Source: Alphaproteobacteria bacterium
GTDB lineage: Bacteria; Pseudomonadota; Alphaproteobacteria; UBA7887
DNA length: 64,000 nt
Direction: 5' to 3'
NCBI GenBank assembly: GCA_965216755.1
Contig: CBDCGL010000011.1
Location: forward strand, 192,001 to 256,000
The notes under the pieces are model-generated. The model had not been told where the DNA came from. It saw only the letters and a list, made by a program, of their open reading frames with translations, and ran no database searches. A program made the translations under genes and the position numbers. Positions 23,196-46,851 of the stretch are shown here, in pieces. The stretch's first letter is position 1, and each line of letters begins with the position of its first letter.

Positions 23196-23226
23196 AACGT
23201 TAGAATCGGAACCCAAGCGATGGTCA

Positions 23227-24566: not shown

Positions 24567-24760
24567 GGTTCCTCCCCTCTCAATCCCTGACTCGAGCAAG
24601 GGTGGCACCGTAGTTGCTTTTCGCCGCCGCGGCATTCGATAAATCCGAACTGTGGGCACGACCATACAACGCCGCCCCTATCATCACTGCGCCTCGGCCG
24701 CTATTGGATCGATCCGTTGGTCACGGTTCTTAGATGGCTGGCTGCAAGGGCGGGTCCTTC

Positions 24761-25588: not shown

Positions 25589-25722
25589 ACCCAACGATCC
25601 GCCGCCAATGCTGCGTACCGCAGCGCGACCTGCGGGCCCTGTCGGACCTATGGGAATTGAGCGCAGATTTGCACGGATGACAAATCGGCGGCACCATAGA
25701 TAGCAGATTGCTCGAGGTACTG

Positions 25723-27138: not shown

Positions 27139-27149
27139 GAAAATCGTGA

Positions 27150-27656
27150 ATGAGCTTTGTCCAAGAGTGTGTCGGCGCGAATCGATATCGTGAATCATTC
27201 GGCCGTCATTTCGAGGATTTCACTGTCGGTGATGTTTACGAACACCGCCCGGGGCGGACGATCAGCGAGGCGGACAACACGTGGTTCACGTTGCTGACCA
27301 TGAACAACCATCCGCTCCATTTCGATGCCGCCTATGCATCCAAAAGCGAATTCGGACAATTGGTCGTCAACAGTGCGCTCACGCTTTCGATCGTGGCGGG
27401 TATGACGGTCAGTGGTGTTTCGCAAAAAGCGATTGCCAATCTGGGATGGAACGATATTCGGCTGACCGCGCCGGTATTCGTCGGCGACACGATCTATGCC
27501 GAGTCCGAGGTGCTTTCGAAGCGCGAGTCCAAGTCGCGGCCGCAACAGGGGATTGTCACGGTCAAGACCACGGGCAAGAAGGCCGACGGTACCGTATTCA
27601 TGTCCTACGAAAGGACCGTTCTTGTGCCAAAACGCGGCCATGCGGTTGACGATTAG
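27150..27656 (+). CDS. MaoC-family hydratase (itaconyl-CoA hydratase-like)
   Basis: YEHRPGRTISEADNTWFTLLTMNNHPLHFD, ANLGW. The resemblance to RipB-type hydratases is from recall only. Confidence 0.8.
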   Translation: MSFVQECVGANRYRESFGRHFEDFTVGDVYEHRPGRTISEADNTWFTLLTMNNHPLHFDAAYASKSEFGQLVVNSALTLSIVAGMTVSGVSQKAIANLGWNDIRLTAPVFVGDTIYAESEVLSKRESKSRPQQGIVTVKTTGKKADGTVFMSYERTVLVPKRGHAVDD

Positions 27657-27667
27657 GACGCAGTGTC

Positions 27668-28834: not shown

Positions 28835-28845
28835 GGTCGCCGATC

Positions 28846-30033: not shown

Positions 30034-30170
30034 GCGCCCGCACGGCAGTTGGTCGGGCGGTGGCGGAGCCGTGTTCTCCCCTCTTGCCAGCCTGGCGATT
30101 ATGGCAGGCTCCACCAGCCTCATGTTCTGTTAAAGCCAGTCGCTGCGGGACCGACGATCGGATGCATTCC

Positions 30171-31703: not shown

Positions 31704-31818
31704 CAGGCGTGTTGGCGCCGGTCACCCGTTCCGCCGTCATGGCGCCTGTGATAGGGTCCGGCGCGTCGCGCGCGGGAAACGCACCCGTATTGTTCGGAAT
31801 TATCGAAGCACGGAGTCG

Positions 31819-32904
31819 ATGGTGAACGGTTTCACTCCCCAATTCTTGCCGGGCGACAAGCCCGTCAAGCCATTCTCGATACTCGATGCAAATGGAAAGC
31901 TTAGACGCGGCGCGGATCCCGGCATGACGGACAAGCGAGTGCTTGAGGGTCTGCGTTTGATGATGTTGGGGCGCGCCTTCGACGAAAAGGCTCTGAGCCA
32001 ACAGCGGCAAGGGCGATTGGGGACGTTTGCGCCTATTTTCGGTCAGGAAGCGACATTGGCGGGTGTGGCTCTAGCCATGGATCCAAGACAAGACTGGGCC
32101 GTACCGCAATATCGAGAACTTCCAGTTCAGATCCACCAGGGATTGCCCCTGGAATCCATCGTGCTCTATCGGCGTGGCCATCCCGATGGTGGTATCATAC
32201 CAGAGGGCGTAAACATCATGGCCACGCAAGTCTCGCTTGCCGCGCAAATTCCACACGCTGTGGGTCTCGCGTGGGGGCTGAAGAAAAAGGGCAGCAAAGG
32301 CGTCGTTGCCGTATTCTTCGGCGACGGTGCGTCTTCCGAGGGCGATTTCCACGAATCCTGCAACCTCGCGGGGTTGGTCGAAGCGCCCGTGATCTTTGTC
32401 TTGCAAAATAATCAGTGGGCCATTTCGACGCCGCGCAGCATCCAAAGCGCCGGGTCTGATCTGGCATCGCGCGCGGCGGCCTATGGTTTTCCCGGCGTTT
32501 CTGTCGACGGCAACGATCTATTTGCCATGCATACGGTCATGGCCGACGCCGTTGCGCGTGGGCGTGCTGGCGACGGGGCTACGTTGATAGAGGCCCACAC
32601 TTATCGCATGGGCATGCACACCACGGCTGACGATCCAACGCGATATGTCGATCCCGCGGAACGCGAACGTTGGGGCAAGAAAGATCCGATCGAACGCGTG
32701 CAAAAATACCTGACGGCGAAAGGGAAATGGGACGACGACACTGCCACCCAATGGCAAGACGAAATCTCGGAACAGGTTGAGGCTGCATTCGCTAAGGCCG
32801 ACGCGCATCCACAGGCTAAGGCCGACGCCCTTTATGAGCACGTCTTTGCTGAACCCACCGTCACGTTGCGGCGCCAGCGCGCGGCTCACCTCGGCGCGCA
32901 ATAG
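31819..32904 (+). CDS. pdhA: 2-oxoacid (pyruvate-type) dehydrogenase E1 alpha
   Basis: TPP motif GDGASSEG...NNQWAIS; HTTADDP. Start moved to ATG 31819. Confidence 0.85.
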   Translation: MVNGFTPQFLPGDKPVKPFSILDANGKLRRGADPGMTDKRVLEGLRLMMLGRAFDEKALSQQRQGRLGTFAPIFGQEATLAGVALAMDPRQDWAVPQYRELPVQIHQGLPLESIVLYRRGHPDGGIIPEGVNIMATQVSLAAQIPHAVGLAWGLKKKGSKGVVAVFFGDGASSEGDFHESCNLAGLVEAPVIFVLQNNQWAISTPRSIQSAGSDLASRAAAYGFPGVSVDGNDLFAMHTVMADAVARGRAGDGATLIEAHTYRMGMHTTADDPTRYVDPAERERWGKKDPIERVQKYLTAKGKWDDDTATQWQDEISEQVEAAFAKADAHPQAKADALYEHVFAEPTVTLRRQRAAHLGAQ

Positions 32905-32915
32905 GGGAGTTTTCG

Positions 32916-33896
32916 ATGCCTCAAATGAATATGGTCGAAGCGATCCGCAGCGGTTTGCGCCAGGAAATGGAACGCGACGAACGTGTCTTATTGATGGGCG
33001 AGGATGTCGGCCATCTGGGCGGCGTTTTTCGCGTCACGGACGGTTTGCAGCAATTTTTTGGATCGCAGCGGGTGATTGACACACCTCTGGCGGAGAGCGT
33101 GATTACCGGTTCGGCGCTCGGCCTGGCCCTTGCGGGTTGGGTGCCGATTGTTGAAATTCAGTTTCTGGGTTTCACTCAGCAATGTTATCACCAGATCAAT
33201 CAGCAGATCGCGCGGGTTCGATTCCGGACCCGTGGCTGTCATTCGGCGCCGATCACGATCCGGTCACCGTTCGGCGGTTGCGTGCGCACACCTGAGTTTC
33301 ATTCCGATTCCATGGAGCAGACCTTCGTCCAGTCTTCGGGGCTAAAGGTCGTCATGCCGGCCAATCCTTACGACGCCAAGGGACTGCTTGCGTCGGCCAT
33401 TCGCGACCCTGATCCGGTGCTCTATCTAGAACCGTTACGCGGCTATCGGTTGATCACGGGCGAAGTCCCCAACGATGACTATACGATTCCGTTTGGCGAG
33501 CTGCGCACGGTGCGTGAAGGCACTGATGTCACGTTGGTCGCGTGGAGCCAGTCCGTGCCGGTTGCCGAGCAGGCTGCCGAGATGGTCGCTGAAAAAGGTA
33601 TCAGCGCGCATGTTGTGGATTTGCGGACTCTTGTTCCGCTCGACGAAGAGGGCTTGGTCGCCGCGGTCGAGCGCACGGGCCGCTGCGTCATTGTCCACGA
33701 ATCGCAAGCCACGTCCGGTTTTGGGGCCGAAGTCATCGCGCTGCTGCAAGAACAAGCGTTTTATTCACTAGAGGCGCCGCTTCGCCGTGTCACAGCGCCG
33801 GACGTGCCATATCCCATGCCTGCGGTCGAGGATTTCTTTGTTCCCGATCCGGAGCGTGTTGTGCAGGCCATTGAAGAAACCATGGCGGATCAATGA
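32916..33896 (+). CDS. pdhB: 2-oxoacid dehydrogenase E1 beta
   Basis: GEDVGHLGGVFRVT, DTPLAES, EIQF, DLRTLVPLD. Confidence 0.88.
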   Translation: MPQMNMVEAIRSGLRQEMERDERVLLMGEDVGHLGGVFRVTDGLQQFFGSQRVIDTPLAESVITGSALGLALAGWVPIVEIQFLGFTQQCYHQINQQIARVRFRTRGCHSAPITIRSPFGGCVRTPEFHSDSMEQTFVQSSGLKVVMPANPYDAKGLLASAIRDPDPVLYLEPLRGYRLITGEVPNDDYTIPFGELRTVREGTDVTLVAWSQSVPVAEQAAEMVAEKGISAHVVDLRTLVPLDEEGLVAAVERTGRCVIVHESQATSGFGAEVIALLQEQAFYSLEAPLRRVTAPDVPYPMPAVEDFFVPDPERVVQAIEETMADQ

Positions 33897-35146
33897 GCGA
33901 TTATGAATTCAAGCTGCCGGACATCGGCGAGGGCCTGAGCGAGGGCGAAATCGTCCATTGGCATGTCGGACCGGGTGACTCGGTGAAGGCCGATCAGACG
34001 ATTGTCGACGTTCAAACCGATAAGGCTGTCGTGGAGATTCCTGCGCCGGTCGCTGGCGTCATCAAGACTCTCGGTGGCGATCCCGGTGATGTGTTGCCGA
34101 TCGGTAGTCTGCTCGTGGTCATCGATTCGAATGTGTCGCCGCCGCCGGCCTCGGCGGCGCACGCTGCGCCCGCGCCTTCGGGACCGGCAACCGAAACACC
34201 GCCGTCTGCTGCGCCCGCACTGTCCGCATCCGCACTGCCGGTCAATGGCGGTCGGCGACGTGTGCTGGCGAGCCCGGCAACGCGCAAATTCGCCGTCGAA
34301 CAAGGGGTTGACCTGACGACGATCACGGGCACGGGCAATCGCGGGCAGATCACCAAAGATGATGTGCGCCGTGCCGCTGCGGGCGGTGCGCCGGCTGTCG
34401 CATCGGGCGCGCCAATGCCAAGCAAACCAATTGTGCCGGTAGAAGGTGCTGATCGTGCGGAGCCGCTTCGAGGCCTGCGGCGTCAAATTGCCGTAACCAT
34501 GGCGGAGGCCTGGCGCGAAATTCCGCATATTCTGACAACGCTCGATATCGATGCCGCCAATTTGGTCGCGGCGCGTGCGGCTTTGGTTGAGGAATTGGCG
34601 CAGGCGGGTGTCAAGCCCAGCTATATGCCATTGATCATGAAGGCTGCGGCCGCGGCGCTGCGGCGCTATCCGACATTCAACGCCAGTCTCGACATGGCCG
34701 GTCAGCAAATCATCTTTCGCCATCGCGTCAATATCGGTTTTGCCGCGGCGACGCCGGATGGTCTGATCGTTCCAGTCGTTCACGATGTGGACCGTAAGCC
34801 GTTGCTCACGCTGGTTCAGGAAATCAACGCGCTTGCCGAGGCGGCTCGCGCCCGCAAGATCACGGTTGATCAACTGCAAGGCGGGACATTTACGATATCC
34901 AACTATGGCAGCTATGGCGGGCAATTTGGCACACCGATCATTCGCCCGCCCGAAGTGGCGATCTTGGGCGTTGGTGCCATTCGCGATGCAGTCGTACCCG
35001 TCGACGGCGCGCCGGCCGTACGCAAGATCATGACCCTAGTCGTTTCGACCGATCATCGCTTGAACGATGGCGAACATCTTGGTCAGTTTGCCGGCGCGAT
35101 CGCCGATTACCTGCGTGAGCCCGTGCGATTGCTGGGGCAACTCTGA
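33893..35146 (+). CDS. Dihydrolipoamide acyltransferase E2
   Basis: Lipoyl domain LPDIGEG...TDKA, ASPATRK binding domain, catalytic DHRLNDG. Confidence 0.92.
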   Translation: MSDYEFKLPDIGEGLSEGEIVHWHVGPGDSVKADQTIVDVQTDKAVVEIPAPVAGVIKTLGGDPGDVLPIGSLLVVIDSNVSPPPASAAHAAPAPSGPATETPPSAAPALSASALPVNGGRRRVLASPATRKFAVEQGVDLTTITGTGNRGQITKDDVRRAAAGGAPAVASGAPMPSKPIVPVEGADRAEPLRGLRRQIAVTMAEAWREIPHILTTLDIDAANLVAARAALVEELAQAGVKPSYMPLIMKAAAAALRRYPTFNASLDMAGQQIIFRHRVNIGFAAATPDGLIVPVVHDVDRKPLLTLVQEINALAEAARARKITVDQLQGGTFTISNYGSYGGQFGTPIIRPPEVAILGVGAIRDAVVPVDGAPAVRKIMTLVVSTDHRLNDGEHLGQFAGAIADYLREPVRLLGQL

Positions 35147-36567
35147 TGGTTGTTGGCCAGATCGCGGAACCGGTCGATTTTGTGGTCGTTGGGGCCGGGC
35201 CGGGTGGATACGCGGCGGCGTTGCGGGCCAGTCAGCTCGGCCGGAAGGTGTTGCTCGTAGACCGCGACGGTGCCGACGGAGTCGGGGGAGTTTGTCTCCG
35301 CGTTGGGTGCATTCCCAGCAAAGCTTTGATCGAGGTAGCCGATTTGGCCGAAAGGGCGCGCGACGCGTCGCGTTTTGGCGTGGATGTCGATGTAAAGGGC
35401 GTCGACATGGCGCAATTCCAGAAATGGAAGACAGGTGTGGTCGACGGCCTGACGGGTGGTGTGCGCGGGCTGCTCGACAAAGCCGGCGTTGACGTCGCGC
35501 GTGGTACGTTTCGTTTCACTGGTCCCGATCGCGGCGTCATTACGCCGGAAGGCGAGGATCAACTGCGCTTCATCAAATTCAAGGATCTGGTTTTGGCCAC
35601 AGGGTCGCGGCCGGTTGAGCTCTGTGAATTGCCGTTCGACGACGAGACCATTCTCGATTCGACCGGCGCCCTTGCCCTGAAGCGACTTCCGAAGACACTG
35701 GCGATTGTGGGTGCCGGCTATATCGGTCTCGAAATCGGCATTGCTTTGGCGAAACTCGGATCCAAGGTCACGATCGTCGAGGCCGAAGATCGGATACTGC
35801 CGACCATGGATCGACGCCTCGCGCGACCGGTTGCGACGACCCTATCAAAACTGGATATCGACATCCGTCTGAAGGCGCGTGCCCAGGGGCAAAGCCGGGG
35901 CAAGCTTGTGATCAAGGGATCAGACGGCGATGAAAAGATCGCCGCCGAATGCATCATCGTCGCCGTCGGCCGTCGTCCAAACACCGATGACCTGAGTTTG
36001 GGGGAGGTCAGACTAAATCCGGGCGAAGACGGCTTGCTGCAAGTGGCTGCCGATCGGCGTATGGCGCCGCATATCGCGGCGATCGGCGACATTACGCCGG
36101 GGCCCGCATTAGCGCATAAAGCCACGGCGGAAGCGATCGTCGCGGCCGAAGCCCTTTGTGGGCAAAAGACGGCTTTCCAGCCGCAAGTAATCCCGGCCGT
36201 GGTTTTCGCCGATCCGGAAATTGCCACGGTCGGCTTGAGTGTTGACGATGCGAAATCGGACGGAATCGATGCACAGGCAACCATGTTCCCGCTCAGCGCC
36301 TCGGGCCGTGCCAAAACTTTGGGTACGCAAGACGGTTTTTTGCAGCTGGTTAGCGACACCGCGGATGGACGCGTGATCGGTGTCCACATTGTCGGTCCGC
36401 ATGCCTCGGATTTAATTGGTGAGGGTGCATTGGCGATTGAGATGGGGGCGACGCAGGAAGATTTGGCATTGACCATTCACGCCCACCCGACCTTGGGCGA
36501 GCTTTATCCTGAAGCTGCTCACTTGGCTCTTGGACAGCCCATTCACATGGCGTTGACGCACCGATAG
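35146..36567 (+). CDS. lpdA: Dihydrolipoyl dehydrogenase E3
   Basis: GAGPGGY, GGVCLRVGCIPSK, GAGYIGLE, HAHPTLGE. Confidence 0.95.
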   Translation: MVVGQIAEPVDFVVVGAGPGGYAAALRASQLGRKVLLVDRDGADGVGGVCLRVGCIPSKALIEVADLAERARDASRFGVDVDVKGVDMAQFQKWKTGVVDGLTGGVRGLLDKAGVDVARGTFRFTGPDRGVITPEGEDQLRFIKFKDLVLATGSRPVELCELPFDDETILDSTGALALKRLPKTLAIVGAGYIGLEIGIALAKLGSKVTIVEAEDRILPTMDRRLARPVATTLSKLDIDIRLKARAQGQSRGKLVIKGSDGDEKIAAECIIVAVGRRPNTDDLSLGEVRLNPGEDGLLQVAADRRMAPHIAAIGDITPGPALAHKATAEAIVAAEALCGQKTAFQPQVIPAVVFADPEIATVGLSVDDAKSDGIDAQATMFPLSASGRAKTLGTQDGFLQLVSDTADGRVIGVHIVGPHASDLIGEGALAIEMGATQEDLALTIHAHPTLGELYPEAAHLALGQPIHMALTHR

Positions 36568-36598
36568 CCGACGTTCGGCCGTAACCGGAAGGAGCCCC

Positions 36599-37816
36599 AT
36601 GCAGCCGTTGCTGACCGGTATGCGCATCGTCGAAGGCTCGGCGTTTATCGCCGCACCCATGTGCGGCATGACGCTTGCCCAGCTTGGCGCCGATGTTATC
36701 CGGTTCGATCAGATTGGCGGCGGCTTGGATTATCGGCGCTGGCCTGTAACCAAAGACAATGTCAGCATCTATTGGGCCGAAATGAACAAGGGCAAGCGTT
36801 CATTTGCTGTTGATTTACGGTCCGATCGAGGGCGTGAGCTGGTCACCCAATTGATTTGTGCTGGCGGCGATGGTAGCGGCATCTTTTCGACCAACCTGCC
36901 CGCCCGTGGCTGGTTGTCCTATGAATCGTTGAAACGGCACCGCGATGATTTGATCCAACTGGCGATCATCGGCGATCGCCACGGCGCCACGGCTGTGGAC
37001 TATACGGTGAACAGCCGCGTTGGTTTTCCGACCATGACCGGTTATCCGGACGATGATCGACCGATCAACCACATTCTGCCTGCATGGGACAATATCACCG
37101 CCTACCAAGCAGCGCTCAGCCTGCTTGCCGCCGATCGTCATCGGCGTCTGACGGGGCAGGGGCAATATGTCGAGATCGCCTTGGCCGATGTCGCGCTGGC
37201 AACGATGGGCCACCTTGGCTTTATCGGCGAAGTCATGGTCAATGACGTGGAGCGTCCGCGGGTCGGCACCGATATCTATGGGTCGTATGGCCGAGATGTG
37301 CTGACCGCCGACAATGTGCGCGTCATGGTCGTATCGGTCAGCCCACGGCAATGGCGCGGGTTGCTGGCCGCGACCCACAGCACTGACGCGATCGGCGAGC
37401 TCGCCGCCAGGCGGGGTCTGAATTTCGATCGGGAAGGCGATCGCTATGCGGCGCGCGACGATATCACGGCCATCTTGCAGACCTGGGTCGGCCGCCATAT
37501 CTACGACGACGTTGCCCGGGCGTTCGATAGCAGCGGCGTGTGCTGGGGCCGCTTTCAGACTGTGCGCGAACTTGTGCGCGATGACCCGGATGTCAGCACG
37601 GACAATCCAATATTCGATATGGTCGACCAGCCTGACATTGGCCGCTATCTGGTTCCAGGCCAACCGATGAGCTTCTCCGCCGTCGAACGCGCACCTGCCA
37701 CACCCGCACCGCGGTTGGGCGAACACACCGACGAAATTCTTGCTGAAGACCTTGGCCTGACCAGCGCCGAAATCGGTATTCTCCACGACCAGGGCGTCGT
37801 TGCGAAATCACGGTGA
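36599..37816 (+). CDS. mct: Family III CoA transferase, mesaconyl-CoA C1-C4 transferase (2-methylfumaryl-CoA isomerase)-like
   Basis: RIVEGSAFIAAPMCGMTLAQLGADVIRFDQIGGGLDYRRWP, NLPARGWLSY, VDYTVN and NHILPAWD match my recall of Chloroflexus-type Mct. Confidence 0.75.
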   Translation: MQPLLTGMRIVEGSAFIAAPMCGMTLAQLGADVIRFDQIGGGLDYRRWPVTKDNVSIYWAEMNKGKRSFAVDLRSDRGRELVTQLICAGGDGSGIFSTNLPARGWLSYESLKRHRDDLIQLAIIGDRHGATAVDYTVNSRVGFPTMTGYPDDDRPINHILPAWDNITAYQAALSLLAADRHRRLTGQGQYVEIALADVALATMGHLGFIGEVMVNDVERPRVGTDIYGSYGRDVLTADNVRVMVVSVSPRQWRGLLAATHSTDAIGELAARRGLNFDREGDRYAARDDITAILQTWVGRHIYDDVARAFDSSGVCWGRFQTVRELVRDDPDVSTDNPIFDMVDQPDIGRYLVPGQPMSFSAVERAPATPAPRLGEHTDEILAEDLGLTSAEIGILHDQGVVAKSR

Positions 37817-37927
37817 CAGTTTTATTACGGTGACAGTTTGCTAAATACGAGTGAACAAACTAACGTAAGTATCATGTGTGGAATTTGCGTATTTAGTAAA
37901 CTGTCACCGTAATAAAACTGTCACCGT
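37810..37927. repeat. 118-bp inverted-repeat element (40-bp arms, one mismatch), REP/MITE-like
   Basis: Arm 37810-37849 (acggtgacagttttattacggtgacagtttgctaaatacg) is the reverse complement of 37888-37927 except at one base. Each arm holds two ACGGTGACAGTTT copies. Confidence 0.92.
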
Positions 37928-38676
37928 AAATCCGTGCTTCCCGACAGCAACTGCGTTAGCGACCGTGACAAGCCTTTTGTCGACTTTGCGGGCGGTGTCG
38001 CGAATGAACCCTTGGTTGCGGGCCGCGGACCAAGTCTCACCAGCGTTTCGGCATGGCTAACCGCGCAGCTGACCCCATCAAGTAGCGGCACGGGGACCGC
38101 GTCGGCGCGTTCCCGGGCCAGGCCGGCCAGCGGCCCGCCACCCAATATCACGATTTCGGCACCATCTTCGGCGACGGTCTTGTTGCATAATGAGATAATC
38201 AGTTCGCCAAGTTGTTCCTTGGCGCGCCCGATATCCGGTATCGGCACGTCGAGACACCGCACCGCCGCCAAACGTCCGGCGAGACCATGTTCCTGGGCAC
38301 ATTCCTCGAACCAACGCCCGAGCCGGGGTGTCAGGGCGACAATTGAATAACGCCGGCCAAATGGCCACGCATTTAATAGCGCCGCTTCGGCGAGGCCAAC
38401 GACAGGAATGTCCAGGAGTTCGCGGGCGGCCGCGAGGCCGGGGTCGCCAAACGCGGAGATGATCGCCGCGTTATAGGTCGCGCTGTGTTCCGCCAAGCAA
38501 TCGAGCACCGCGTGGGCCGCGATCGCCGCTTCGACGCGATTCTCAATGTAAGCCGCGCCGAACCGCGCCGTCACCGCGTCCACGGTTGTTTCCGGTGCGG
38601 CCGCGCGCCGCGCTTCGTCGGCCATTCGCGCGGTCACCGTTTCGGTGACGTTGGGATTGACCAGCAGCAATTTCAC
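37921..38676 (-). CDS. Asp/Glu/hydantoin racemase family protein
   Basis: LVNPNVT, AFGDPGL.AARE...PVVG, PLLDGV. The usual catalytic Cys positions read SAFGDP and LGGGPL. Confidence 0.85.
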   Translation of the reverse strand: MKLLLVNPNVTETVTARMADEARRAAAPETTVDAVTARFGAAYIENRVEAAIAAHAVLDCLAEHSATYNAAIISAFGDPGLAAARELLDIPVVGLAEAALLNAWPFGRRYSIVALTPRLGRWFEECAQEHGLAGRLAAVRCLDVPIPDIGRAKEQLGELIISLCNKTVAEDGAEIVILGGGPLAGLARERADAVPVPLLDGVSCAVSHAETLVRLGPRPATKGSFATPPAKSTKGLSRSLTQLLSGSTDLR

Positions 38677-38694
38677 GGCGCGCTCGCGATCGGC

Positions 38695-40581
38695 CTACTC
38701 GGCGGCTTGGGCTTTGCCCATCCAATTCTGGAAGACCGGCGTCTTCGGCGGGTCTATGTGGGTCTCCTCTTTACAGTGTTGCTTCAGCTCGTCCACCGAA
38801 CCGCCGAAATCAAAGATTTCGGTCTTGCCACGTTCCGACGCCAGCCTGCGTCGCAAGGCCTCTGTTGCGCGCTCGTCCACGCTGAGGTCCTTTTTCAGTA
38901 CGACTCCATAACGCCGCGCACCGTCTGCGGTCACGATCCCGCGACGGGCATCGAGAGCCACCTTGTCGGCGTCGCGCTTTAGCGGGTCACCCCAACCGCC
39001 GCCGCCCCAAGTGTTGAAATAGAGCGTATCGCCCGGTGCGACTTTCAACCGGTCGCATTTTGATGGCATCCATTCGCTGCTGCCGTCGGCGCGCACCATC
39101 AGTTTGGTGCTGCGTCGGCCGGGCAAACCGCCATTGACTCCCCAAGGATGGGTCAGCCAACGGTCATCGTGGATCGAGATCTCGCCGGGCTCCAAGAACT
39201 GATAGCCCATGGATAAGCCATTGCCGCCCCGATGCAGGCCCGGGCCACCACTGTCCGCGATAGTCTCGAACTTGACGATACGGAGCGGGAAATAGGCCTC
39301 CAGGAATTCGTTGGGAACGTTGGTAAAGGCTGGCCATAGGGAATGACCATCAGGGCCATCGCCGGCGGGTCGCCCTGGAATTCCACCAAAACCGATTTGG
39401 TAGAGCTGATACCACTCCCCATCCTTGTTGTAGCCCGAATACATGAAATGCGGACTGTCGGAAAATCCGGCCGCGCACAACGCGTCGGGCGAACCCTGCC
39501 CCAGCAATCCGCTCATGATATCGAAAATGCGGGCCAGCAGATGGGTGCGCGAGCTGAGCGCGGCTGGGCGGATTGGCTTCAAGATCGTGCCACGCGGAAT
39601 GTGCACATCGACCAAATCATAAAACCCGTCATTGAACAGGATTTGCGGGTCAAACAGATTGATGAAGAACGCGCCGAGGAACATTTTGAACATTTCCTCG
39701 TTGAGCAAGAAATTCACCGAGCTGATCGACTGCGGGTCGGTGCCTTCAAAATCGAAAATGACACGATCGCCCTCGCGCCACATGGCACAAGCGATCTTGT
39801 ATGGCCCCATACCCATACCATCGTCGTCAATATAGTCTTCGAAATACTGCTTCGTCTCCGGAACCACGTTTTTCAAAATTGCGCCCATCGCGCGTTTGTT
39901 GCGCTCTAGCATTTCGCCCATGGCGGCGACGAACATGTCGACGCCAAAGCGATCGACCATCTCCAAGACGCGCCGTTCGGCCAGGCGCATGGCGGCCACC
40001 AGGGCGTTGAAGTCCGACCTGTTCCACTCCGGCATGCGGCAGTTGCGCAGTATGAGTTCCAAGATCTCTTCGTTCAGTACGCCCTTGCGGATGATCTTAA
40101 CCGGTGGAATCTGAACCCCTTCTTCAAAAATCTGAGCCGCATCGGTCGGCAGACTCCCTGGCACTTTGCCGCCGATATCGGTCATATGCCCAAACATGGC
40201 TGCCCAGGCAACAATGCGCCCATCAATGTAGATTGGCATCATCATCAACCAGTCATTGAGGTGGCTGATCGCGCCGTTGCATGTATAAGGATCGTTGGTC
40301 AGGAAGATATCGCCTTCCTCGATCGTACCCTCGTAGCCCTGTTGGAAGCCCCAGAAGAACGATCCGAACTGGCCAACAACCATTTTGCCTTCCGGGTTGG
40401 CGATCATCGGGAAGGCGTCATGTTGTTCGCGTATCCCGGGCGACATGGCCGTGCGGAATAGAACGGCGTCCATTTCGCTGCGTGCATTTCTGAGGGCATT
40501 CTCGACAATGTCGAGCGTTATCGGGTCGACTTCGACGCTCGTAAAGGGCGCCGTGTTTGTCTGAATAATTTTCGCGGGCAT
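38695..40581 (-). CDS. Hydantoinase B/oxoprolinase family subunit
   Basis: RTAMSPGIRE, NDPY...SHLND, HMTDIGGKVPGS, SGGPGLHRGG, GGGGWGDP. Confidence 0.93.
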   Translation of the reverse strand: MPAKIIQTNTAPFTSVEVDPITLDIVENALRNARSEMDAVLFRTAMSPGIREQHDAFPMIANPEGKMVVGQFGSFFWGFQQGYEGTIEEGDIFLTNDPYTCNGAISHLNDWLMMMPIYIDGRIVAWAAMFGHMTDIGGKVPGSLPTDAAQIFEEGVQIPPVKIIRKGVLNEEILELILRNCRMPEWNRSDFNALVAAMRLAERRVLEMVDRFGVDMFVAAMGEMLERNKRAMGAILKNVVPETKQYFEDYIDDDGMGMGPYKIACAMWREGDRVIFDFEGTDPQSISSVNFLLNEEMFKMFLGAFFINLFDPQILFNDGFYDLVDVHIPRGTILKPIRPAALSSRTHLLARIFDIMSGLLGQGSPDALCAAGFSDSPHFMYSGYNKDGEWYQLYQIGFGGIPGRPAGDGPDGHSLWPAFTNVPNEFLEAYFPLRIVKFETIADSGGPGLHRGGNGLSMGYQFLEPGEISIHDDRWLTHPWGVNGGLPGRRSTKLMVRADGSSEWMPSKCDRLKVAPGDTLYFNTWGGGGWGDPLKRDADKVALDARRGIVTADGARRYGVVLKKDLSVDERATEALRRRLASERGKTEIFDFGGSVDELKQHCKEETHIDPPKTPVFQNWMGKAQAAE

Positions 40582-40593
40582 GGCGGCGGTCCC

Positions 40594-42984
40594 CTAATCG
40601 GCCGGACGAATGAGAATATTGGACACCTGATCGACCTCACCGACATGGTCCGGCAGAACCAACGTGGTCGAATCCATTTCGGTCACAACCGCGGGGCCTC
40701 TTATCCGGTCGCCAGCCAACAACTTAGACCGGTCATAGATCTTTGCCGGATGTTCGCCGCCGTCGACAAACACTCTCGATGTCTCATAGACCGCGTGCGC
40801 GCCGTCGTTGCCGCCGGCGGCCAGCGTTTCCGCCTTGGCGAGGCTTTCACGCCCTTGGACGATCGCGCGCAGATTGTAGAGCTCGCGCTCGGCATCCATC
40901 GAAAACGTAAATAACTGCTCGTGCAACTTGTCAAAGCGTTGCGCGATTTCACCGAGCCCGCCGCCGGCATAGTCCTCCGGCGTGATATCCACGGTCAGTC
41001 GCATGCCTTGGCCCGCATATCTCAGGTCGACCTGGTACATCGTGGTTTGCTCGTCACGCGGCACGCCTTCATCGTCCAGCGTGGCCGAAGCGGCGGTGGC
41101 GAGATCTTCAAGAATGCCGTGGACCTCCGCGTCGCTGGTATCCGATATGCGCCGGACGAATGTCCGCGACGCTTCATCGCGTACGCGCGTCGTCGCGTCG
41201 CCATAGGCACACAACACACCCGGTCCGGGGGGGATGACGACCGGCCACGAACCCATGAGCTTGCCCAGCGCGTTGGCGTGCAGTGGGCCCGCGCCGCCGA
41301 AGCCGACCAAGGCGAAGTCGCGCGGGTCAAAACCTTGCTCGACGGAAACCAGGCGCAGCGCCCCGAACATGTTTTCGTTGACGATATTGACGATGCCTTC
41401 GGCCGCTTCCATCAACGGCAATCCCATGGCGTCGGCGATTTTGGCGACGGCCTCTTCAGCTTTGTCGCGGTCAATAAGCATGTCGCCGCCAAGTTTTGCC
41501 GTTGCCGGCAGATAGCCGAGCACGACGTTGGCATCCGTCACTGTCGGTTCGGTGCCACCGCGACCATAGGCGGCGGGGCCGGGTTCGGCCCCAGCGCTTT
41601 GTGGCCCGACGCGGAGCGCCTTGGTGAGCTCCGGGACATAGGCGATTGAGCCGCCGCCCGCTCCAACCGTGCGGACATCGATTGAAGACGCGCGTACGGT
41701 CACGTCCGCGACCCGGGTCTCGCGCCGTGTCTGCGCCACGCCCCCTTGAATCAGCGCAACATCGGTTGACGTACCGCCCATATCGAATGTCAGTAAATCC
41801 GTGAAGCCGGCCTGTTTGGCCATCCAAATTGCGCCCGAGACGCCGCCCGCCGGTCCACTCATCAATAGATTAACGGGGGTCGCCTTAGCCGCCTCGGCTG
41901 ACGCCAGGCCACCGTCCGACCGCAAAACGTGGAGTTGTACGCCGTTCATGCGTTTGTTGAGCTCGGCATGAAGGTTTTCGACATACGTCGATACGACAGG
42001 CCGAATGTACGAGTTCACGACCGTGGTTTCGGTCCGTTCATACTCGTACATTTCGGGCACAACTTCCGACGAAATTGAAATCGGCACGTTCGGCATGATT
42101 TGCGCGGCGATCGCGCGGACTTTTTCTTCGTGGGCGCCACTCGCATAAGCGTTCATAAGCGACACTGTCAGCGCTTCAACGCCTTCGGCCCGGAGCCGGT
42201 TCAGATCCTCGCGCAGCTTGGCCTCATCCAAGGGTTCGACGATCTCACCTTTGGCACCTGTGCGCTCATTGGCCTCGATGGTCAATTCCAACGGCGCCAA
42301 CGGATCAGCTTTGTTGTAGATCACCCATCCACCGAGACCGCCAGGCACATAAGATCGGGCAATTTGCAGTATCTGCCGATAGCCCTTGGTGGTCACCAAC
42401 CCAACCCGCGCGCCGCTGGCGGTGAGTACTGTATTTGTCGCAACTGTCGTGCCATGCATGACATGGCCGATAGCTGTAGCTTCGATTCCGGCGTAGTCGC
42501 AGATCCGTTCGATCCCGTTCAAGACGCCGATCGACGAGTCCTGCGGTGTCGACGGGACCTTTGCTGTATAGGTGTGTCCCGTCTTTTCCTCGATTAGCAA
42601 CAAGTCGGTGAAAGTACCGCCGACGTCAACGCCAAGCTGGTACTGGCCGCCCGCGGTTGGGCGCCGCCGTGGTTTCGCCGTCGGCTCGGGGCGCGGCGGC
42701 GCGGGCCGCGCTGTGGTCGGCGCTCGCGCGTCGATCTTGCGTGGCGCGGGCCTTGGCGCTGCTGGTTTTTCCCGGGTACGTGGGGTTTCGACTGGCGCGA
42801 CCGGTGGGGCCACACTCGGTGATGATACGGGAGCCACTGGCGGCGTGGAGACCGGACCGCCGGCAGGCGCAGGCGATCGCGGCGCCGATCGGCCGCCAGT
42901 ACGACCGAGCTTGTCAAATTCTTGGGCGATATCGGCGAGTTGCTTGTCGAACCAACTCGTGCCGTTGCCTGAGTTCTTCGCCAT
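40594..42984 (-). CDS. Hydantoinase A/oxoprolinase family subunit with a long N-terminal extension
   Basis: GVDVGGTFTD, HGTTVATN, SGPAGG, DMGGTSTD, GAGGGSIA, PTVTDAN, FGGAGPLH. Confidence 0.93.
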   Translation of the reverse strand: MAKNSGNGTSWFDKQLADIAQEFDKLGRTGGRSAPRSPAPAGGPVSTPPVAPVSSPSVAPPVAPVETPRTREKPAAPRPAPRKIDARAPTTARPAPPRPEPTAKPRRRPTAGGQYQLGVDVGGTFTDLLLIEEKTGHTYTAKVPSTPQDSSIGVLNGIERICDYAGIEATAIGHVMHGTTVATNTVLTASGARVGLVTTKGYRQILQIARSYVPGGLGGWVIYNKADPLAPLELTIEANERTGAKGEIVEPLDEAKLREDLNRLRAEGVEALTVSLMNAYASGAHEEKVRAIAAQIMPNVPISISSEVVPEMYEYERTETTVVNSYIRPVVSTYVENLHAELNKRMNGVQLHVLRSDGGLASAEAAKATPVNLLMSGPAGGVSGAIWMAKQAGFTDLLTFDMGGTSTDVALIQGGVAQTRRETRVADVTVRASSIDVRTVGAGGGSIAYVPELTKALRVGPQSAGAEPGPAAYGRGGTEPTVTDANVVLGYLPATAKLGGDMLIDRDKAEEAVAKIADAMGLPLMEAAEGIVNIVNENMFGALRLVSVEQGFDPRDFALVGFGGAGPLHANALGKLMGSWPVVIPPGPGVLCAYGDATTRVRDEASRTFVRRISDTSDAEVHGILEDLATAASATLDDEGVPRDEQTTMYQVDLRYAGQGMRLTVDITPEDYAGGGLGEIAQRFDKLHEQLFTFSMDAERELYNLRAIVQGRESLAKAETLAAGGNDGAHAVYETSRVFVDGGEHPAKIYDRSKLLAGDRIRGPAVVTEMDSTTLVLPDHVGEVDQVSNILIRPAD

Positions 42985-43003
42985 TTAACGTGTCCCGATT
43001 TCG

Positions 43004-43648
43004 CTAGTTGTTACGGCGACGCCATTGTTCAATCCAGTCGATCGCGTGATCGGCAGTGATGACGTCACAATAACGCCGCCCAACGTCGCGAAGATTATCT
43101 TGGTGCGGCCTTTCATCGTGATCGCCCACGCAATCTTCTGGCACAATTGTGCGGAATCCCCACTGAAAGCTGTCAATGACCGAGGCGCGAACGCAACCAG
43201 ACGTCACACAACCCGTGACAATCACAGTGTCAACGTGTTGCTTCAACAAATAAGCCGTTGCAGGAGTTTGAAAGAAAATGGACGCGCCGGACTTGCGCAT
43301 GGCCACGTCGTAACCGGGGTCGAATATGCGTGGGTCGAATTTGGTCGACGGGTGGCCTTCGATGAGATCCTCAGTGACCGTCGTGACCTTCCAATAGGGC
43401 ATATCCTCCCGCGAGTTGTAGGCCGTATAGCACGTCGCGACGGGAACGCCGCTGCGTCGCGCCACCTCCAGCAAGCGGGCTGTATTGTTGACCGCGCGAT
43501 CAATCAATGGCGCACCGCCAAGTTTGTATGCCGGGTCCGTGAATGCAGTCTGAAAGTCGACCACGACGATTCCGGCCTTCTGACCGAAACCAATTTCCGT
43601 ACCTCCGTAGGTGCGTTCTTGGTAGATCTCCGTCGATGAATCCGTCAC
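43004..43648 (-). CDS. Isochorismatase-family amidohydrolase (N-carbamoylsarcosine amidase/NicF-like)
   Basis: VVDFQ, RKSGASIF, TGCVTSGCVRAS..D; GGAGG RBS before the GTG start. Confidence 0.88.
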   Translation of the reverse strand: MTDSSTEIYQERTYGGTEIGFGQKAGIVVVDFQTAFTDPAYKLGGAPLIDRAVNNTARLLEVARRSGVPVATCYTAYNSREDMPYWKVTTVTEDLIEGHPSTKFDPRIFDPGYDVAMRKSGASIFFQTPATAYLLKQHVDTVIVTGCVTSGCVRASVIDSFQWGFRTIVPEDCVGDHDERPHQDNLRDVGRRYCDVITADHAIDWIEQWRRRNN

Positions 43649-43730
43649 CGTGTCCTCCCTTTGGCTCGCCGCTGGCCGGTGTCAAGCGGTTATGGTCGCT
43701 AGGTTATAGCAGGGATTTTGGCGGAGCTCT

Positions 43731-44459
43731 TTGATTCCAATGGAGATGATGAAACTGGACATTGCCGGCGATGCGCGACGGGCGTTTGACGTGCTGGCGC
43801 GCGGCGGAATTGCGATCCTTCCGATGGACGTTGGCTATTCGCTGATCGGTGGCTCCGACGTCGCGTTAGAGACCATATTCCAGACGAAGAAGCGCGCTGG
43901 GTCAAAGCTGAACGCCATGCTCGGCGACAATACACTGCAACACGAGCTCCAGATACTGGATCAGCGCGGATGGGAGATCGTTGACGCCATTATCGGCGAC
44001 TATGATCTCCCGCTTGGCGCCATCGCGCCCGCGCGAATGGATCATCCCATTCTTCGGAAAATGAGCTCCGATGCGCTTCGGCGTTCAACCAGATTAGACA
44101 CGGTCTTGATGCTACTCAATGCTGGTCATTTTCATGCGGAGATCTGTCGGTTTAGCCGAGAGGCCGTGCATCCGCTGTTCGGTTCGTCGGCGAACCTGTC
44201 GCTTTCCGGTACAAAGTTCCTGGTATCCGATATTGAGCCAGAACTACGGGCGATCGCCGACATCGTCATCGATCACGGTCTGCGCAAGTATCATCTCTAC
44301 CGAGCGTCCTCGACACTTCTTGATCTGAAAACCTTGGACGTCGTGCGCTATGGCTCCTGCTTTGAACTGATCGCGGATATCCTCAAACGCCATTTCAAAA
44401 TTGAACTCCCACCGCCGCCGCCGGGGTACTTGCACACACTGATCGCCGATCGCCTATAG
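43731..44459 (+). CDS. Divergent Sua5/YrdC (TsaC-like) domain protein, copy 1
   Basis: GGIAILPMDVGY, IFQTKKR, FGSSANLS, ADIVID.G, SSTLLDL, VRYG. Start may be ATG 43740/43746. Confidence 0.8.
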   Translation: MIPMEMMKLDIAGDARRAFDVLARGGIAILPMDVGYSLIGGSDVALETIFQTKKRAGSKLNAMLGDNTLQHELQILDQRGWEIVDAIIGDYDLPLGAIAPARMDHPILRKMSSDALRRSTRLDTVLMLLNAGHFHAEICRFSREAVHPLFGSSANLSLSGTKFLVSDIEPELRAIADIVIDHGLRKYHLYRASSTLLDLKTLDVVRYGSCFELIADILKRHFKIELPPPPPGYLHTLIADRL

Positions 44460-44485
44460 ATACGACTCAAGGAAGGGTAGGCTTC

Positions 44486-45202
44486 ATGGACATGTTCGAA
44501 GGGCGGAATATCGCGACTGACGCGCGGCGCATACTTGATACGGTGGCCGCCGGCGGGGTCGCGATCTTTCCCTTGACCGTGGGCTACGGCATGGTAGGCC
44601 ACACCAAGGCTGCCGTCGCGCGCATCTATGAGGCCAAGGCACGCAGTTTCGGCAAACCGTGCGGCATGTTCGCAAACTGGGAATTGTTTATGGAAATCAG
44701 CGATGTTGATGACCAACGCCGCAACATTGTCCGCACGATCATCGACATGCACAATTTGCCGTTTTCAATCGTCGCGCCATTTCGACAAAACCATCCTTTG
44801 ATCCAATCGTTAGACGCATACGCACTCGCGAACGCCAGCAAGTCGGGCACGATGGACTTACTCATGAATGCCGGTGCGCTGCACGATGCCGTCGCGCAAG
44901 GCGCCCGCGGGCGTGGGATGGCGGTCGTCGGGTCTTCTGCCAATCGTTCATTGACAGGAAGCAAATTTCGACTCGAAGACGTTGAGGACCAGGTGCGGGC
45001 CGCTGCCGATCTTTGCATTGATTACGGTCTCAGCCGGTATCACAACGACGAAGGCTTGGGCAGCTCGATTATCGATCTGATCAGTTTTGAAACCATCCGC
45101 GTCGGCTGTGTCTATGATCAAATCTGTCAAATTCTGTTGGACGAACACGCAATCGACCTCAAGGCTATCGGCATGGCCGGCCGAGATCCACAAACTAAAT
45201 AG
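44486..45202 (+). CDS. Divergent Sua5/YrdC (TsaC-like) domain protein, copy 2
   Basis: GGVAIFPLTVGY, IYEAKAR, GSSANRS, ADLCIDYG, SSIIDL, IRVG. Confidence 0.8.
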   Translation: MDMFEGRNIATDARRILDTVAAGGVAIFPLTVGYGMVGHTKAAVARIYEAKARSFGKPCGMFANWELFMEISDVDDQRRNIVRTIIDMHNLPFSIVAPFRQNHPLIQSLDAYALANASKSGTMDLLMNAGALHDAVAQGARGRGMAVVGSSANRSLTGSKFRLEDVEDQVRAAADLCIDYGLSRYHNDEGLGSSIIDLISFETIRVGCVYDQICQILLDEHAIDLKAIGMAGRDPQTK

Positions 45203-45330
45203 TGTCCGGCTATCAGCTCGGACCATCAATTTCGATCGTGCTGGGGTCGCCAAGGAAACGCCGCCTTGCTAGGTTATGGCCACGGACGCATGAGACTTAC
45301 AATTGCGAACAAGCCGGAAGGAGACCGCCA

Positions 45331-46851
45331 ATGGCGCAGGTTGTGTCGTTCCAAGAACCGATGGAGCAACTGGTCCGCTTTGTCGAGGATACCGCCCCGG
45401 ATCACATGGTTGCGGCAGCGCAAGAGCGTCTGAACGCGGGCGTGCAACCCCGCGACCTGCTCGCGGCGGCGGGTCTCGCCGTTAGTCGATCGACGGAGTT
45501 ACCGCCTTCGCATCACGGTGGACCCGTGCATCCGGTCTGCGGCCTTTCTGCGTTGAACGGATTGACCGAGCGGCTTTCCGGCAAACGTGGATTCCTGCCG
45601 ACGATTCAAGGCCTTGCCTTGGCAAACAGACATATTCACGCGCCAGAAATGGGGCCGGCGGCCATGGCTGTTGTCGACGTCGATGACTTGGTGAAGCTAG
45701 GCAAGAAAACAGTTCTCGACGGATTTCGAGATGCCTTGCACGCACGTGTGGCACCGACGGCCATTCGTCACATGATCGCGCTCACCAAAATGGCGACGCC
45801 CGGGGAAATCATGGAGGGCCTTCTGAGCGTGGCACTGCCCCGTAACGCCCTCGACGATCATTACTTTCTGTACGTGGTTTACGCGTTTCGCGCCCTCGAC
45901 GATCTGGGCTGGGAACATGCCGGCGTCATGCTGCGGCCGCCCGTGCAGTTTCTTACCCGCCACCCGATGATGGAACATGGCGACGGCATGCGCGGTCAGA
46001 TCATCGCCGATGGCATCGCCCTGTACCGTGCTTTCACAGACTTGGAGTCGGCGCTTGACCAGAGTGGTCTGGTTGACTCGCCGCCACCTTTCGATACCAA
46101 TGCCGGCGAATCCCGCGCGATCGATTTGCTCGCAGACGAAATCGCCTTGATCGAGGCGATCCCGAATGTCTCGACATTGCTAATCGATGCCATGGTTGGT
46201 GGACTCTCGATTATGGGTACTTTGGAAGCGATGTCAATCGGCGGTGGCCGACGCTATTTGCGGTCCGACAGTGGCAATCCGTTCGATGTCCATATTCACA
46301 CCGGGGTCAATGCCCGTCGGTATCTACTGGGCTTGCCCGATTTGTCATTGCGCACCAAACTGTTGGCATTGCTGTCTTGGGGGCAGGGCTATGAGGTACG
46401 CCATTTGGATCGCACAATGCGTCACCCCGTCGGTGCCGATCCGCATCAATTGGCGCGTCTGCCACGACGCGACCAAACAACTCTACTCGATGCAATTGCG
46501 GAAGATCTAGCCAGTCTACCGGTTGTCGATCTCACCGCGCTGACGGGATCAATTGCTGACCTGGTTGCCCCGCAGGCATTGGCACACACGATCGCGCTGG
46601 CACAACAATACGCCCAGGCCGGCCATGATCCGGATCCATTCTTCGCGCTAATGGCTGATTTGGTCTGTCACGACGACCAATCCGAAATGCACGCGTACAA
46701 AATGCAGCAGGCCGCCTATGAGGAATACCAGGCGACGCGGGATCCGTTCCGGTGGGTGCACATAGTATCCGCCGCGCGCCATCTTGCTGTGATCATGCAA
46801 ATGCGTCCGCGAACGGTCTATCCGCAGGCTTTGAAACTATTGCCCGCGTAG
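45331..46851 (+). CDS. Uncharacterised helical protein with repeated His/acidic motifs
   Basis: Long ORF; GGAAGGAG RBS before ATG 45331; motifs HHGGPVH, DDHYF, FDVHIHT, SEMHAYK. No family recognised with confidence. Confidence 0.65.
   Translation: MAQVVSFQEPMEQLVRFVEDTAPDHMVAAAQERLNAGVQPRDLLAAAGLAVSRSTELPPSHHGGPVHPVCGLSALNGLTERLSGKRGFLPTIQGLALANRHIHAPEMGPAAMAVVDVDDLVKLGKKTVLDGFRDALHARVAPTAIRHMIALTKMATPGEIMEGLLSVALPRNALDDHYFLYVVYAFRALDDLGWEHAGVMLRPPVQFLTRHPMMEHGDGMRGQIIADGIALYRAFTDLESALDQSGLVDSPPPFDTNAGESRAIDLLADEIALIEAIPNVSTLLIDAMVGGLSIMGTLEAMSIGGGRRYLRSDSGNPFDVHIHTGVNARRYLLGLPDLSLRTKLLALLSWGQGYEVRHLDRTMRHPVGADPHQLARLPRRDQTTLLDAIAEDLASLPVVDLTALTGSIADLVAPQALAHTIALAQQYAQAGHDPDPFFALMADLVCHDDQSEMHAYKMQQAAYEEYQATRDPFRWVHIVSAARHLAVIMQMRPRTVYPQALKLLPA

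Follow-up and report, generated by a model that had tools for sequence, protein, structure and literature searches.

Few enzyme families are universal, and PF01300 is among them; what becomes of its paralogues that are not TsaC is an annotation problem for which YciO serves as the standard example. TsaC and Sua5 are L-threonylcarbamoyl-AMP synthases, using threonine, bicarbonate and ATP, that start the universal N6-threonylcarbamoyladenosine (t6A) modification of tRNA. The YrdC-like domains of HypF and of TobZ, GdmN and NovN form carbamoyl-adenylate from carbamate and ATP and pass it to an acceptor other than tRNA, so that the fold also serves small-molecule and protein chemistry. Here, we examined a stretch of 64,000 nucleotides from Alphaproteobacteria bacterium (lineage UBA7887; assembly GCA_965216755.1, contig CBDCGL010000011.1, positions 192,001 to 256,000 of the forward strand), called the window below, in which two adjacent YrdC/Sua5-fold paralogues, yrdc1 and yrdc2, stand head-to-head with a hydantoinase-type operon (Table 1). 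Our preferred reading, which we hold tentatively and at somewhat less than an even chance, is that this pair represents an uncharacterised non-t6A subfamily of YrdC/Sua5 proteins acting as accessory adenylate-forming enzymes of cyclic amide and ureide catabolic clusters.

In Pa-Sua5, ATP is bound by K56xR58 and S143xN145 and threonine by T33, S181 and R195, as given in the accessible part of the source (PMC10321239). A reading of the window from its letters alone (the sequence-only reading) had described two adjacent YrdC-fold genes that keep KxR and SSAN, carry PMDVGY or PLTVGY and lack WPGxLT, and these motifs were confirmed in both genes: yrdc1 has LPMDVGYS, KKR and GSSANLS, and yrdc2 has FPLTVGYG, KAR and GSSANRS. 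The two proteins are 36% identical (E 9e-49), and K53, R55, GSSAN, SST and R206 of yrdc1 are invariant among 17 homologues. Residue conservation was assessed across 97 aligned clade members, which came from 80 public loci, four further genomes and the window. The ATP tetrad K51, R53, S151 and N153 is kept in 97/97, both window genes included, and aligns with that of the genome's own Sua5; S193 and R205, the Ser and Arg that bind threonine in Sua5, are kept in 97/97 as well. At the Thr33 equivalent, 91 members have Val and 5 have Ile, with a gap in the remaining one, and the Thr before this position is replaced in 83/97 by V, L, M or N, the four commonest residues. Because the tetrad, Ser and Arg persist in all members while Thr has given way to Val or Ile, the predicted ATP/adenylate site is conserved in both paralogues and the predicted threonine pocket is changed. 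Lys57, Asn128 and Lys/Arg160 are invariants specific to the clade, Asn128 lying inside a 10-residue insertion that bears T..L.N.G..H. An AlphaFold2 (AF2) model of yrdc2 (pLDDT 92.5) matches 29 PDB chains at E<=1e-3, all of those listed being YrdC-fold, and its best folds by Foldseek are 3l7v, Sua5/TsaC2, HypF and YrdC, all at probability 1.0. The clade can be recognised by the sequence rule P-x-x-V-G-Y, T..L.N.G..H and GSSANxSLxG[ST]K[FY].

In keeping with the sequence-only reading, neither window copy is the cell's TsaC. A canonical Sua5 lies elsewhere in the genome (G000:C11:1043305), scoring 200.6 bits to PF01300 against 41 and 32.6 bits for the window pair, and it has FSTETVYG, KARPRFNPL, WPGALT, PSANRSG, STVID and PGM..HY together with the C-terminal Sua5 extension. 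The same arrangement was found in 5/5 other carriers checked, each with its own canonical copy at 160-190 bits beside divergent copies at 29-51 bits. To the TsaC equivalog TIGR00057, with a cut-off of 123.2 bits, yrdc1 scores 25.4 and yrdc2 33.0 bits.

Both genes belong to a distinct PF01300 clade far from TsaC. In a quick maximum-likelihood tree the Sua5 outgroup branch amounts to 7-10 changes per column, and yrdc1-type sequences form one clade (25 rows, support 100) nested among yrdc2-like lineages. A 90%-clustered database holds 476 homologues of yrdc2 at E<=1e-3, and the sources name yrdc2 homologues 'tRNA A37 threonylcarbamoyladenosine synthetase subunit TsaC/SUA5/YrdC'. Searched against 1.84 billion 50%-identity representatives, the clade profile matched 1099 at E<=1e-3, 309 at 1e-10 and 86 at 1e-30; since only 1099 match, the mass of true TsaC/Sua5 proteins goes undetected by it. 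Clade proteins are stand-alone and 230-250 amino acids long (230-240 in the window), and a longer-protein search with yrdc2 found no fused forms at E<=1e-10, which is weak evidence. A search of the ESM Atlas returned generic YrdC clusters only.

Among 401 genomes of the class, the clade is patchy and occurs in 25. Two copies are present in 13 of these carriers, adjacent in 9, and the remaining 12 have one; in two genomes of about 2 Mb a single yrdc1-type gene directly follows hydB. It had been suggested that the YrdC pair might form a heterodimer, and an obligate heterodimer does not fit the one-copy carriers or the lone yrdc1-type genes after hydB. To judge by their residues, both paralogues are catalytically equipped; pairing may occur, and either type can stand alone.

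The association of this clade with hydantoinase and amidase genes, also anticipated from the window, is real and well above a rough estimate of chance. We took the best 80 of 261 confirmed relatives and searched the open reading frames (ORFs) of their loci with the window proteins and seed neighbours; an overlap filter removed the anchor gene in six, so that counts are out of 74, and the 46 loci flanked by 5 kb or more on each side form a well-flanked subset. hydA or hydB lies within 10 kb in 37/74 loci and in 27/46 well-flanked ones, compared with about 4% expected by chance, a rough figure derived from 9 Hydantoinase_B copies in the window's own 5.0-Mb genome. Any amide hydrolase (HydAB, isochorismatase-type, amidase-signature or Amidohydro_1) lies within 5 kb in 32 of the 46. 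At the level of genomes, HydB at E<=1e-100 is found in 21/25 carriers (all with at least 67% identity) versus 15/376 non-carriers, and in 15 of those 21 it is within 5 kb of the YrdC gene; an orthologue of the window's amidase is found in 19/25 carriers versus 12/376 non-carriers. We considered the amidase as a tighter partner than HydB and rejected this, its co-occurrence (19/25) being similar to that of HydB (21/25).

Lineages differ in gene order yet keep the proximity. The arrangements seen, with > and < for the two strands, include yrdc2> hydB< hydA< amidase<; hydA> hydB> amidase-signature> PrpD> yrdc>; hydA> hydB> PEP-mutase/ICL> isochorismatase> PrpD> yrdc> amidase> (phosphoenolpyruvate mutase/isocitrate lyase, PEP-mutase/ICL); and, in a 1.9-Mb genome, hydA> hydB> yrdC> prpD>. 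Among the same-strand orders consistent with an operon are hydA-hydB-yrdC(-prpD), found in two genomes of about 2 Mb, and hydA-hydB-amidase-PrpD-yrdC in L083. One genome has an amidase, a luciferase-like monooxygenase, a CN-hydrolase and a dihydropyrimidinase-type amidohydrolase followed by the yrdc pair, all on the same strand. An isochorismatase-type gene is adjacent to the clade gene in 15/74 loci and yrdc1 in 13/74, and an amidase-signature gene lies within 10 kb in 23/74. Clusters outside the window also carry MmgE/PrpD, a family III CoA-transferase, methylisocitrate-lyase-like genes and lyases of the HpcH or HMG-CoA-lyase-like kind (3-hydroxy-3-methylglutaryl-CoA, HMG-CoA).

Table 1. Features at and around the divergent cluster, in positions of the window
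Feature	Position	Strand	Basis
Family III CoA-transferase	36599-37816	+	PF02515 189 bits
Racemase-like gene (hydantoin/allantoin; Asp/Glu/hydantoin racemase)	37921-38676	-	PF01177 143 bits
Hydantoinase/oxoprolinase B subunit (HydB)	38695-40581	-	Hydantoinase_B PF02538 499 bits
Hydantoinase/oxoprolinase A subunit (HydA)	40594-42984	-	PF01968, PF05378, PF19278; A plus N and C domains
Isochorismatase-family cysteine hydrolase ('amidase')	43004-43648	-	PF00857 101.5 bits
Divergent intergenic region, amidase / yrdc1	43649-43730		Sequence read
yrdc1, YrdC/Sua5-fold paralogue, clade 1	43731-44459	+	PF01300 32.6 bits (cut-off 25.1)
yrdc2, YrdC/Sua5-fold paralogue, clade 2	44486-45202	+	PF01300 41.0 bits (cut-off 25.1)
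506-amino-acid all-helical His-rich protein	45331-46851	+	ORF without Pfam or NCBIfam match

In the window itself, the ORF map and Pfam matches place the hydrolase, HydA, HydB and racemase genes in an operon-like run of four on the minus strand. The divergent amidase-hydantoinase A/B-racemase operon described earlier is therefore present as a gene run, with the correction that its 'amidase' is an isochorismatase-family cysteine hydrolase and not an amidase-signature enzyme. The head-to-head spacing of less than 100 bp likewise stands at 82 bp if yrdc1 begins at the TTG at 43731, and becomes about 97-100 bp if it begins at the ATG at 43746 or 43749, one of which is probably the true start according to the homologue alignment. 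A scan for sigma-70-like consensus found no site in the divergent region, with 1 promoter-like site found against 3.7 expected.

The closest solved relatives of the operon proteins are enzymes of hydantoin and related ring-opening chemistry. HydB matches N-methylhydantoinase (7hk5, 236 bits) and caprolactamase (6yra_B, 212 bits); a carboxylase reading of HydAB was rejected, as the HydB scores to acetone carboxylase (about 60 bits) and acetophenone carboxylase (125 bits) fall short of the 212-236 bits to the lactamase and hydantoinase. The hydrolase matches N-carbamoylsarcosine amidohydrolase (26st, 126.7 bits), the maleamate-amidase-type entries 4l07 and 3ot4, at 107 and 103 bits, and 1nba (98 bits). 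Hydrolases of the isochorismatase family use an Asp-Lys-Cys catalytic triad; the stretches TSGCVRA, VVVD and KxgAS of the window protein align with both 26st and 4l07. The racemase matches the hydantoin/allantoin racemases 3qvk (126.7 bits) and 5lfd (126.1 bits). None of the hydrolase, HydA, HydB and racemase reaches an NCBIfam equivalog cut-off, the nearest equivalogs of HydA and HydB being caprolactamase alpha (535 bits) and beta (220 bits), with cut-offs of 1000. Taken together, the best solved relatives of the four proteins would fit an ATP-dependent hydantoin route.

The HydA ORF of 796 amino acids is real. Orthologues share a conserved motif within its first 110 residues: M1, W11, F12, D13, L16, F23 and L26 are invariant in an alignment of 6. 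This extra segment (42655-42984, minus strand) has a 30-residue motif, M..W-F-D-x-Q-L..F..L-G, and after it a Pro/Ala-rich low-complexity linker. It is shared by the subclade nearest to the window (L093, L005, L008, L009, L010, L014 and L021), and the HydA of other locus types begins directly at the Hydant_A_N domain. The segment could be a tethered docking or membrane helix.

As to mechanism, the enzyme would bind ATP, and the carboxylate or carbamate anion of a small metabolite would attack the alpha-phosphate to give an acyl- or carbamoyl-adenylate and pyrophosphate (PPi), as in TsaC, HypF and TobZ. A cysteine hydrolase acting on an N-carbamoyl acid yields ammonia and an N-carboxy acid. By its entry title, the TsaC structure 9dsv has N-carboxy-L-threonine bound. 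An N-carboxy acid thus being of the TsaC substrate class, the neighbouring amidase is a plausible supplier, and the most plausible substrate would be an N-carboxy or N-carbamoyl acid from a ring-opened ureide hydrolysed by that amidase; an amino-dicarboxylate plus CO2 would be an alternative. A more specific version has this as the first catabolic small-molecule chemistry of the TsaC type, in which the YrdC protein interconverts the N-carboxy/N-carbamoyl acid derived from HydAB and the amidase with carbamoyl-adenylate. Here, the adenylate might be handed to HydA, which we take to have an actin fold, echoing the pairing of YrdC and Kae1-like components in TsaC/TsaD, HypF and TobZ, or the reaction might run in reverse with PPi and regain the ATP spent on ring opening; we regard this version as distinctly doubtful. 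The sequence-only reading had envisaged a tRNA-independent ureido/carbamoyl pathway in which the YrdC pair would activate an amine other than threonine, or else a salvage route for modified nucleosides or cyclic amides. What stands of it is that the copies are not TsaC, that the Thr33 equivalent is lost and that hydantoinase and amidase genes are linked to the clade; its racemase and His-motif protein fall outside the module. The window racemase, the 506-amino-acid protein, an epoxide hydrolase and an FAA-hydrolase are each found near the clade in 0/74 loci, and no nucleoside-related gene recurred in the clade neighbourhoods of the loci surveyed.

Several observations weigh against accessory adenylate-forming enzymes of amide and ureide catabolism. 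It is hard to see what an adenylation that consumes ATP would do in a catabolic route based on hydrolysis, and no Kae1-type acceptor or transferase domain was fused in the longer-form search, itself weak evidence, or was obviously adjacent. No amide hydrolase lies within 10 kb in 12/46 well-flanked loci, and among the loci of this kind L067, L074 and L063 show only CoA-transferase, PrpD or PEP-mutase/ICL genes. At Burkholderiales loci the pair lies beside an Old Yellow Enzyme (OYE), TauD, DJ-1 and amidase genes with no hydantoinase within 10 kb. Conversely, close HydAB orthologues (62-76% identity) occur in 9 sampled genomes without any YrdC of this type; hydA and hydB were present in all 7 YrdC-free clusters read, and in 4 of them (L094, L096, L098 and L099) an HMG-CoA-lyase-like gene and a CoA-transferase gene were neighbours of these two. 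Finally, related genomes are not independent, and the co-occurrence counts given above consequently overstate the support. Since HydAB clusters exist without YrdC, HydAB does not need it, and YrdC is an accessory and not a core subunit.

The Burkholderiales loci are of separate interest. In L030, L034, L039 and L041 (about 7100-15400 in L030), yrdc1-yrdc2 come directly after TspO/MBR and FAD monooxygenase-like genes, near carotenoid genes, and opposite the pair stand genes for an OYE reductase, a TauD dioxygenase, a DJ-1/PfpI protein and an amidase-signature amidase. Since maleimides are substrates for reduction by OYE enzymes and tetrapyrroles are ligands of TspO, tetrapyrrole-derived cyclic imides are a conceivable substrate class at these loci.

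The best surviving alternative, although we consider it unlikely, is that the YrdC-like proteins adenylate a C5/C6 di- or tricarboxylate, in the range of PrpD, methylisocitrate lyase and HMG-CoA lyase, and so either prime a family III CoA-transferase, as a split ATP-dependent CoA ligase, or drive isomerisation or decarboxylation with MmgE/PrpD. The commonest immediate neighbour of the clade is indeed MmgE/PrpD, which lies within 300 bp in 17/74 loci and in L070 overlaps the yrdc start with its stop by 4 bp. HMG-CoA-lyase-like genes (NF004283, 320-344 bits, above cut-off) are adjacent in 12/74, a family III CoA-transferase lies within 10 kb in 22/74, with its gene between yrdc1 and yrdc2 in L023 and L054, and a methylisocitrate-lyase-like gene lies within 10 kb in 16/74. 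Genes of the PrpD and CoA-transferase type are retained where every amide hydrolase is missing (L067, L074), and a polyanionic ligand could be accommodated by the additional invariants Lys57, Asn128 and Lys160. PrpD, a MaoC hydratase, an HpcH lyase, an acyl-CoA dehydrogenase and two CoA-transferases also lie within 20 kb in the window. Nevertheless, we know of no YrdC-fold enzyme that adenylates a plain carboxylate, clusters of HydAB with HMG-CoA-lyase-like and CoA-transferase genes exist without YrdC, and in the clade nearest to the window the partners are hydAB and the amidase rather than PrpD.

Less probable still, and in our view rather improbable, is a non-catalytic role, in which the proteins would serve the hydantoinase/amidase system as regulators or as subunits that bind a nucleotide or ligand, perhaps docking on the HydA N-terminal peptide. 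The conserved motif on a flexible linker in the HydA of the window subclade would suit such docking, but type II loci keep YrdC without the HydA extension and HydAB orthologues work without YrdC in other genomes. In the remote relatives P0366 and P0377, a YrdC-like domain follows an isopropylmalate-synthase-like domain, the usual place of the LeuA regulatory domain. There is also the precedent of E. coli YciO, which keeps its active site and has only trace threonylcarbamoyl-AMP activity, a missing partner or another substrate being suspected, according to the accessible part of that preprint (bioRxiv 10.1101/2024.07.01.601547). Against these stands the strict invariance, in 97/97 and in both paralogue clades, of six catalytic and substrate-binding positions, which argues for catalysis. 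A further possibility, that either or both copies supply L-threonylcarbamoyl-AMP for tRNA t6A as a reserve or under particular conditions, is extremely improbable: PF01300 membership and the retained KxR/SxN, Ser and Arg would allow it, but TIGR00057 scores of 25 and 33 bits against 123.2, the Val or Ile at the Thr33 equivalent, the canonical Sua5 in the window genome (G000) and in 5/5 other carriers checked, and the patchy distribution (25/401 genomes) in a catabolic context all speak against it.

YrdC-like domains fused to other domains were seen only in remote relatives (P0366, P0377, P0376 and P0319; about 100-126 bits to the clade profile). They are of two types, one C-terminal to an isopropylmalate/homocitrate-synthase-like domain (HMGL-like plus HCS_D2; up to 407 bits to the LeuA model) and the other N-terminal to a haem-oxygenase-like domain of the CADD/TENA/PqqC type. 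Matches to a DnaJ protein, and to a chain in which fragments of PrpD and YrdC are joined, were judged to be chance or chimeric. Around the clade loci, two recurrent neighbour families without Pfam match (clusters c18 and c14; about 370 and 168 amino acids) precede an SBP_bac_8-type ATP-binding cassette transporter, in L006, L009, L020, L021, L057, L068 and others.

The third gene on the plus strand most likely starts at the ATG at 45331 and not at 45202, as all homologues start so, which gives a product of 506 amino acids and a gap of 129 bp after yrdc2. Its AF2 model is all-helical (pLDDT 94.7). Foldseek gave no match at E<=1e-3; VIA-align, in which a Z near 14 can be chance for helical proteins, matched the questin oxidase BTG13 (7y3w, Z 16.0 over 330 residues) and the hydroquinone dioxygenase PaD (8z4q, Z 14.7 over 336 residues), the sole full-length structural matches, with later rows covering at most 125 residues. 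Across 40 homologues, eight His residues are invariant, as are K457 and E452. From these model comparisons, the protein is likely a bacterial branch of the atypical non-haem-iron ring-cleaving oxygenase fold. The family is rare (6/401 genomes), and the other 5 genomes all lack the YrdC clade; as with the racemase, its inclusion in the module was not borne out by the neighbourhoods.

Upstream, an island at 21666-37816 encodes an enolase-superfamily protein, an HpcH/HpaI lyase, a MaoC/mesaconyl-CoA-hydratase-like protein, a methyltransferase, MmgE/PrpD, an acyl-CoA dehydrogenase and a family III CoA-transferase. Its other products are a GltB-like FMN protein bearing two CDGSH iron-sulfur motifs, the full E1alpha/E1beta/E2/E3 set of a 2-oxoacid dehydrogenase complex and another family III CoA-transferase. 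The HpcH lyase, MaoC-like, MmgE/PrpD, acyl-CoA dehydrogenase, two CoA-transferase, GltB-like and 2-oxoacid complex genes lie 8-20 kb upstream. The island resembles a C5-dicarboxylate/2-oxoacid CoA pathway that may take up the product of the hydantoinase operon. Together with the recurrent neighbours of the clade, it suggests N-heterocycle or ureide catabolism in which the carbon skeleton would drain into branched C5/C6 dicarboxylyl-CoA chemistry.

A literature search found no report linking YrdC-family proteins with hydantoinase/oxoprolinase clusters, although the supplementary tables of a published PF01300 network may list the group, and nothing mentioning 3L7V was found. In the part of its source accessible to us, that network covers TsaC, Sua5 and YciO, and clusters below 40 nodes are not displayed (bioRxiv 10.1101/2024.07.01.601547). 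The fold and likely chemistry are known already, and it is the biological role that would be new: a catabolic role in hydantoinase-linked clusters is probably a new metabolic job for the family. If an adenylate is formed in a catabolic route, carbamoyl-adenylate chemistry would extend past tRNA, hydrogenase maturation and antibiotic tailoring. The reproducible genomic association points to substrates, namely hydantoins, lactams, imides and ring-opened acids, and a cultivable carrier is at hand in Marinibaculum pumilum KCTC 42964 (locus L033). In practical terms, the clade sequence rule could stop over-annotation as TsaC/SUA5/YrdC.

Set beside YciO, the E. coli TsaC paralogue, the clade shares PF01300 membership, a retained active site and a function other than t6A synthesis (1k7j, TMt 0.73); YciO, however, is associated with rnm (RNase AM) and bears a conserved basic patch that binds RNA, whereas the clade is linked to hydantoinase, amidase and PrpD genes (for YciO, the accessible part of bioRxiv 10.1101/2024.07.01.601547). 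With TsaC/Sua5 (EC 2.7.7.87) it shares the fold (Foldseek probability 1.0; TMq 0.65-0.69 to Sua5/TsaC2), the ATP tetrad KxR/SxN and the threonine-binding Ser and Arg. It differs in having Val or Ile at the Thr33 equivalent, no WPGxLT stretch, a 10-residue insertion with invariant T..L.N.G..H, and K57 and K160 as extra invariants; in scoring far under the equivalog cut-off; and in that its genes come in addition to a genuine Sua5 and have catabolic rather than translation-related surroundings. The best profile match (38.4 bits, E 7e-9) and best fold match is SMU.1377c of Streptococcus mutans (PDB 3l7v), an uncharacterised YrdC-fold protein that has the P-x-x-V-G-Y and SSAN-S-G motifs in common with the clade, although identity is 17% and SMU.1377c is 295 amino acids long. 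The YrdC-like domains of HypF (E 5e-8) and of GdmN and TobZ (3e-3 to 1e-2) have the same fold as weaker matches; unlike the stand-alone window proteins, the domains of the HypF/TobZ type are fused to a Kae1-like (ASKHA) transferase. For the remainder of the cluster, the nearest described system is the creatinine/N-methylhydantoin route, also named in the literature on sponge symbionts, whose ATP-dependent N-methylhydantoinase and N-carbamoylsarcosine amidase are the best solved relatives of the window HydB and amidase. To our knowledge that route has no YrdC-like component, and the nearest NCBIfam equivalog cut-offs are not reached by the window proteins; moreover, the presence of a racemase suggests a chiral 5-substituted hydantoin rather than N-methylhydantoin.

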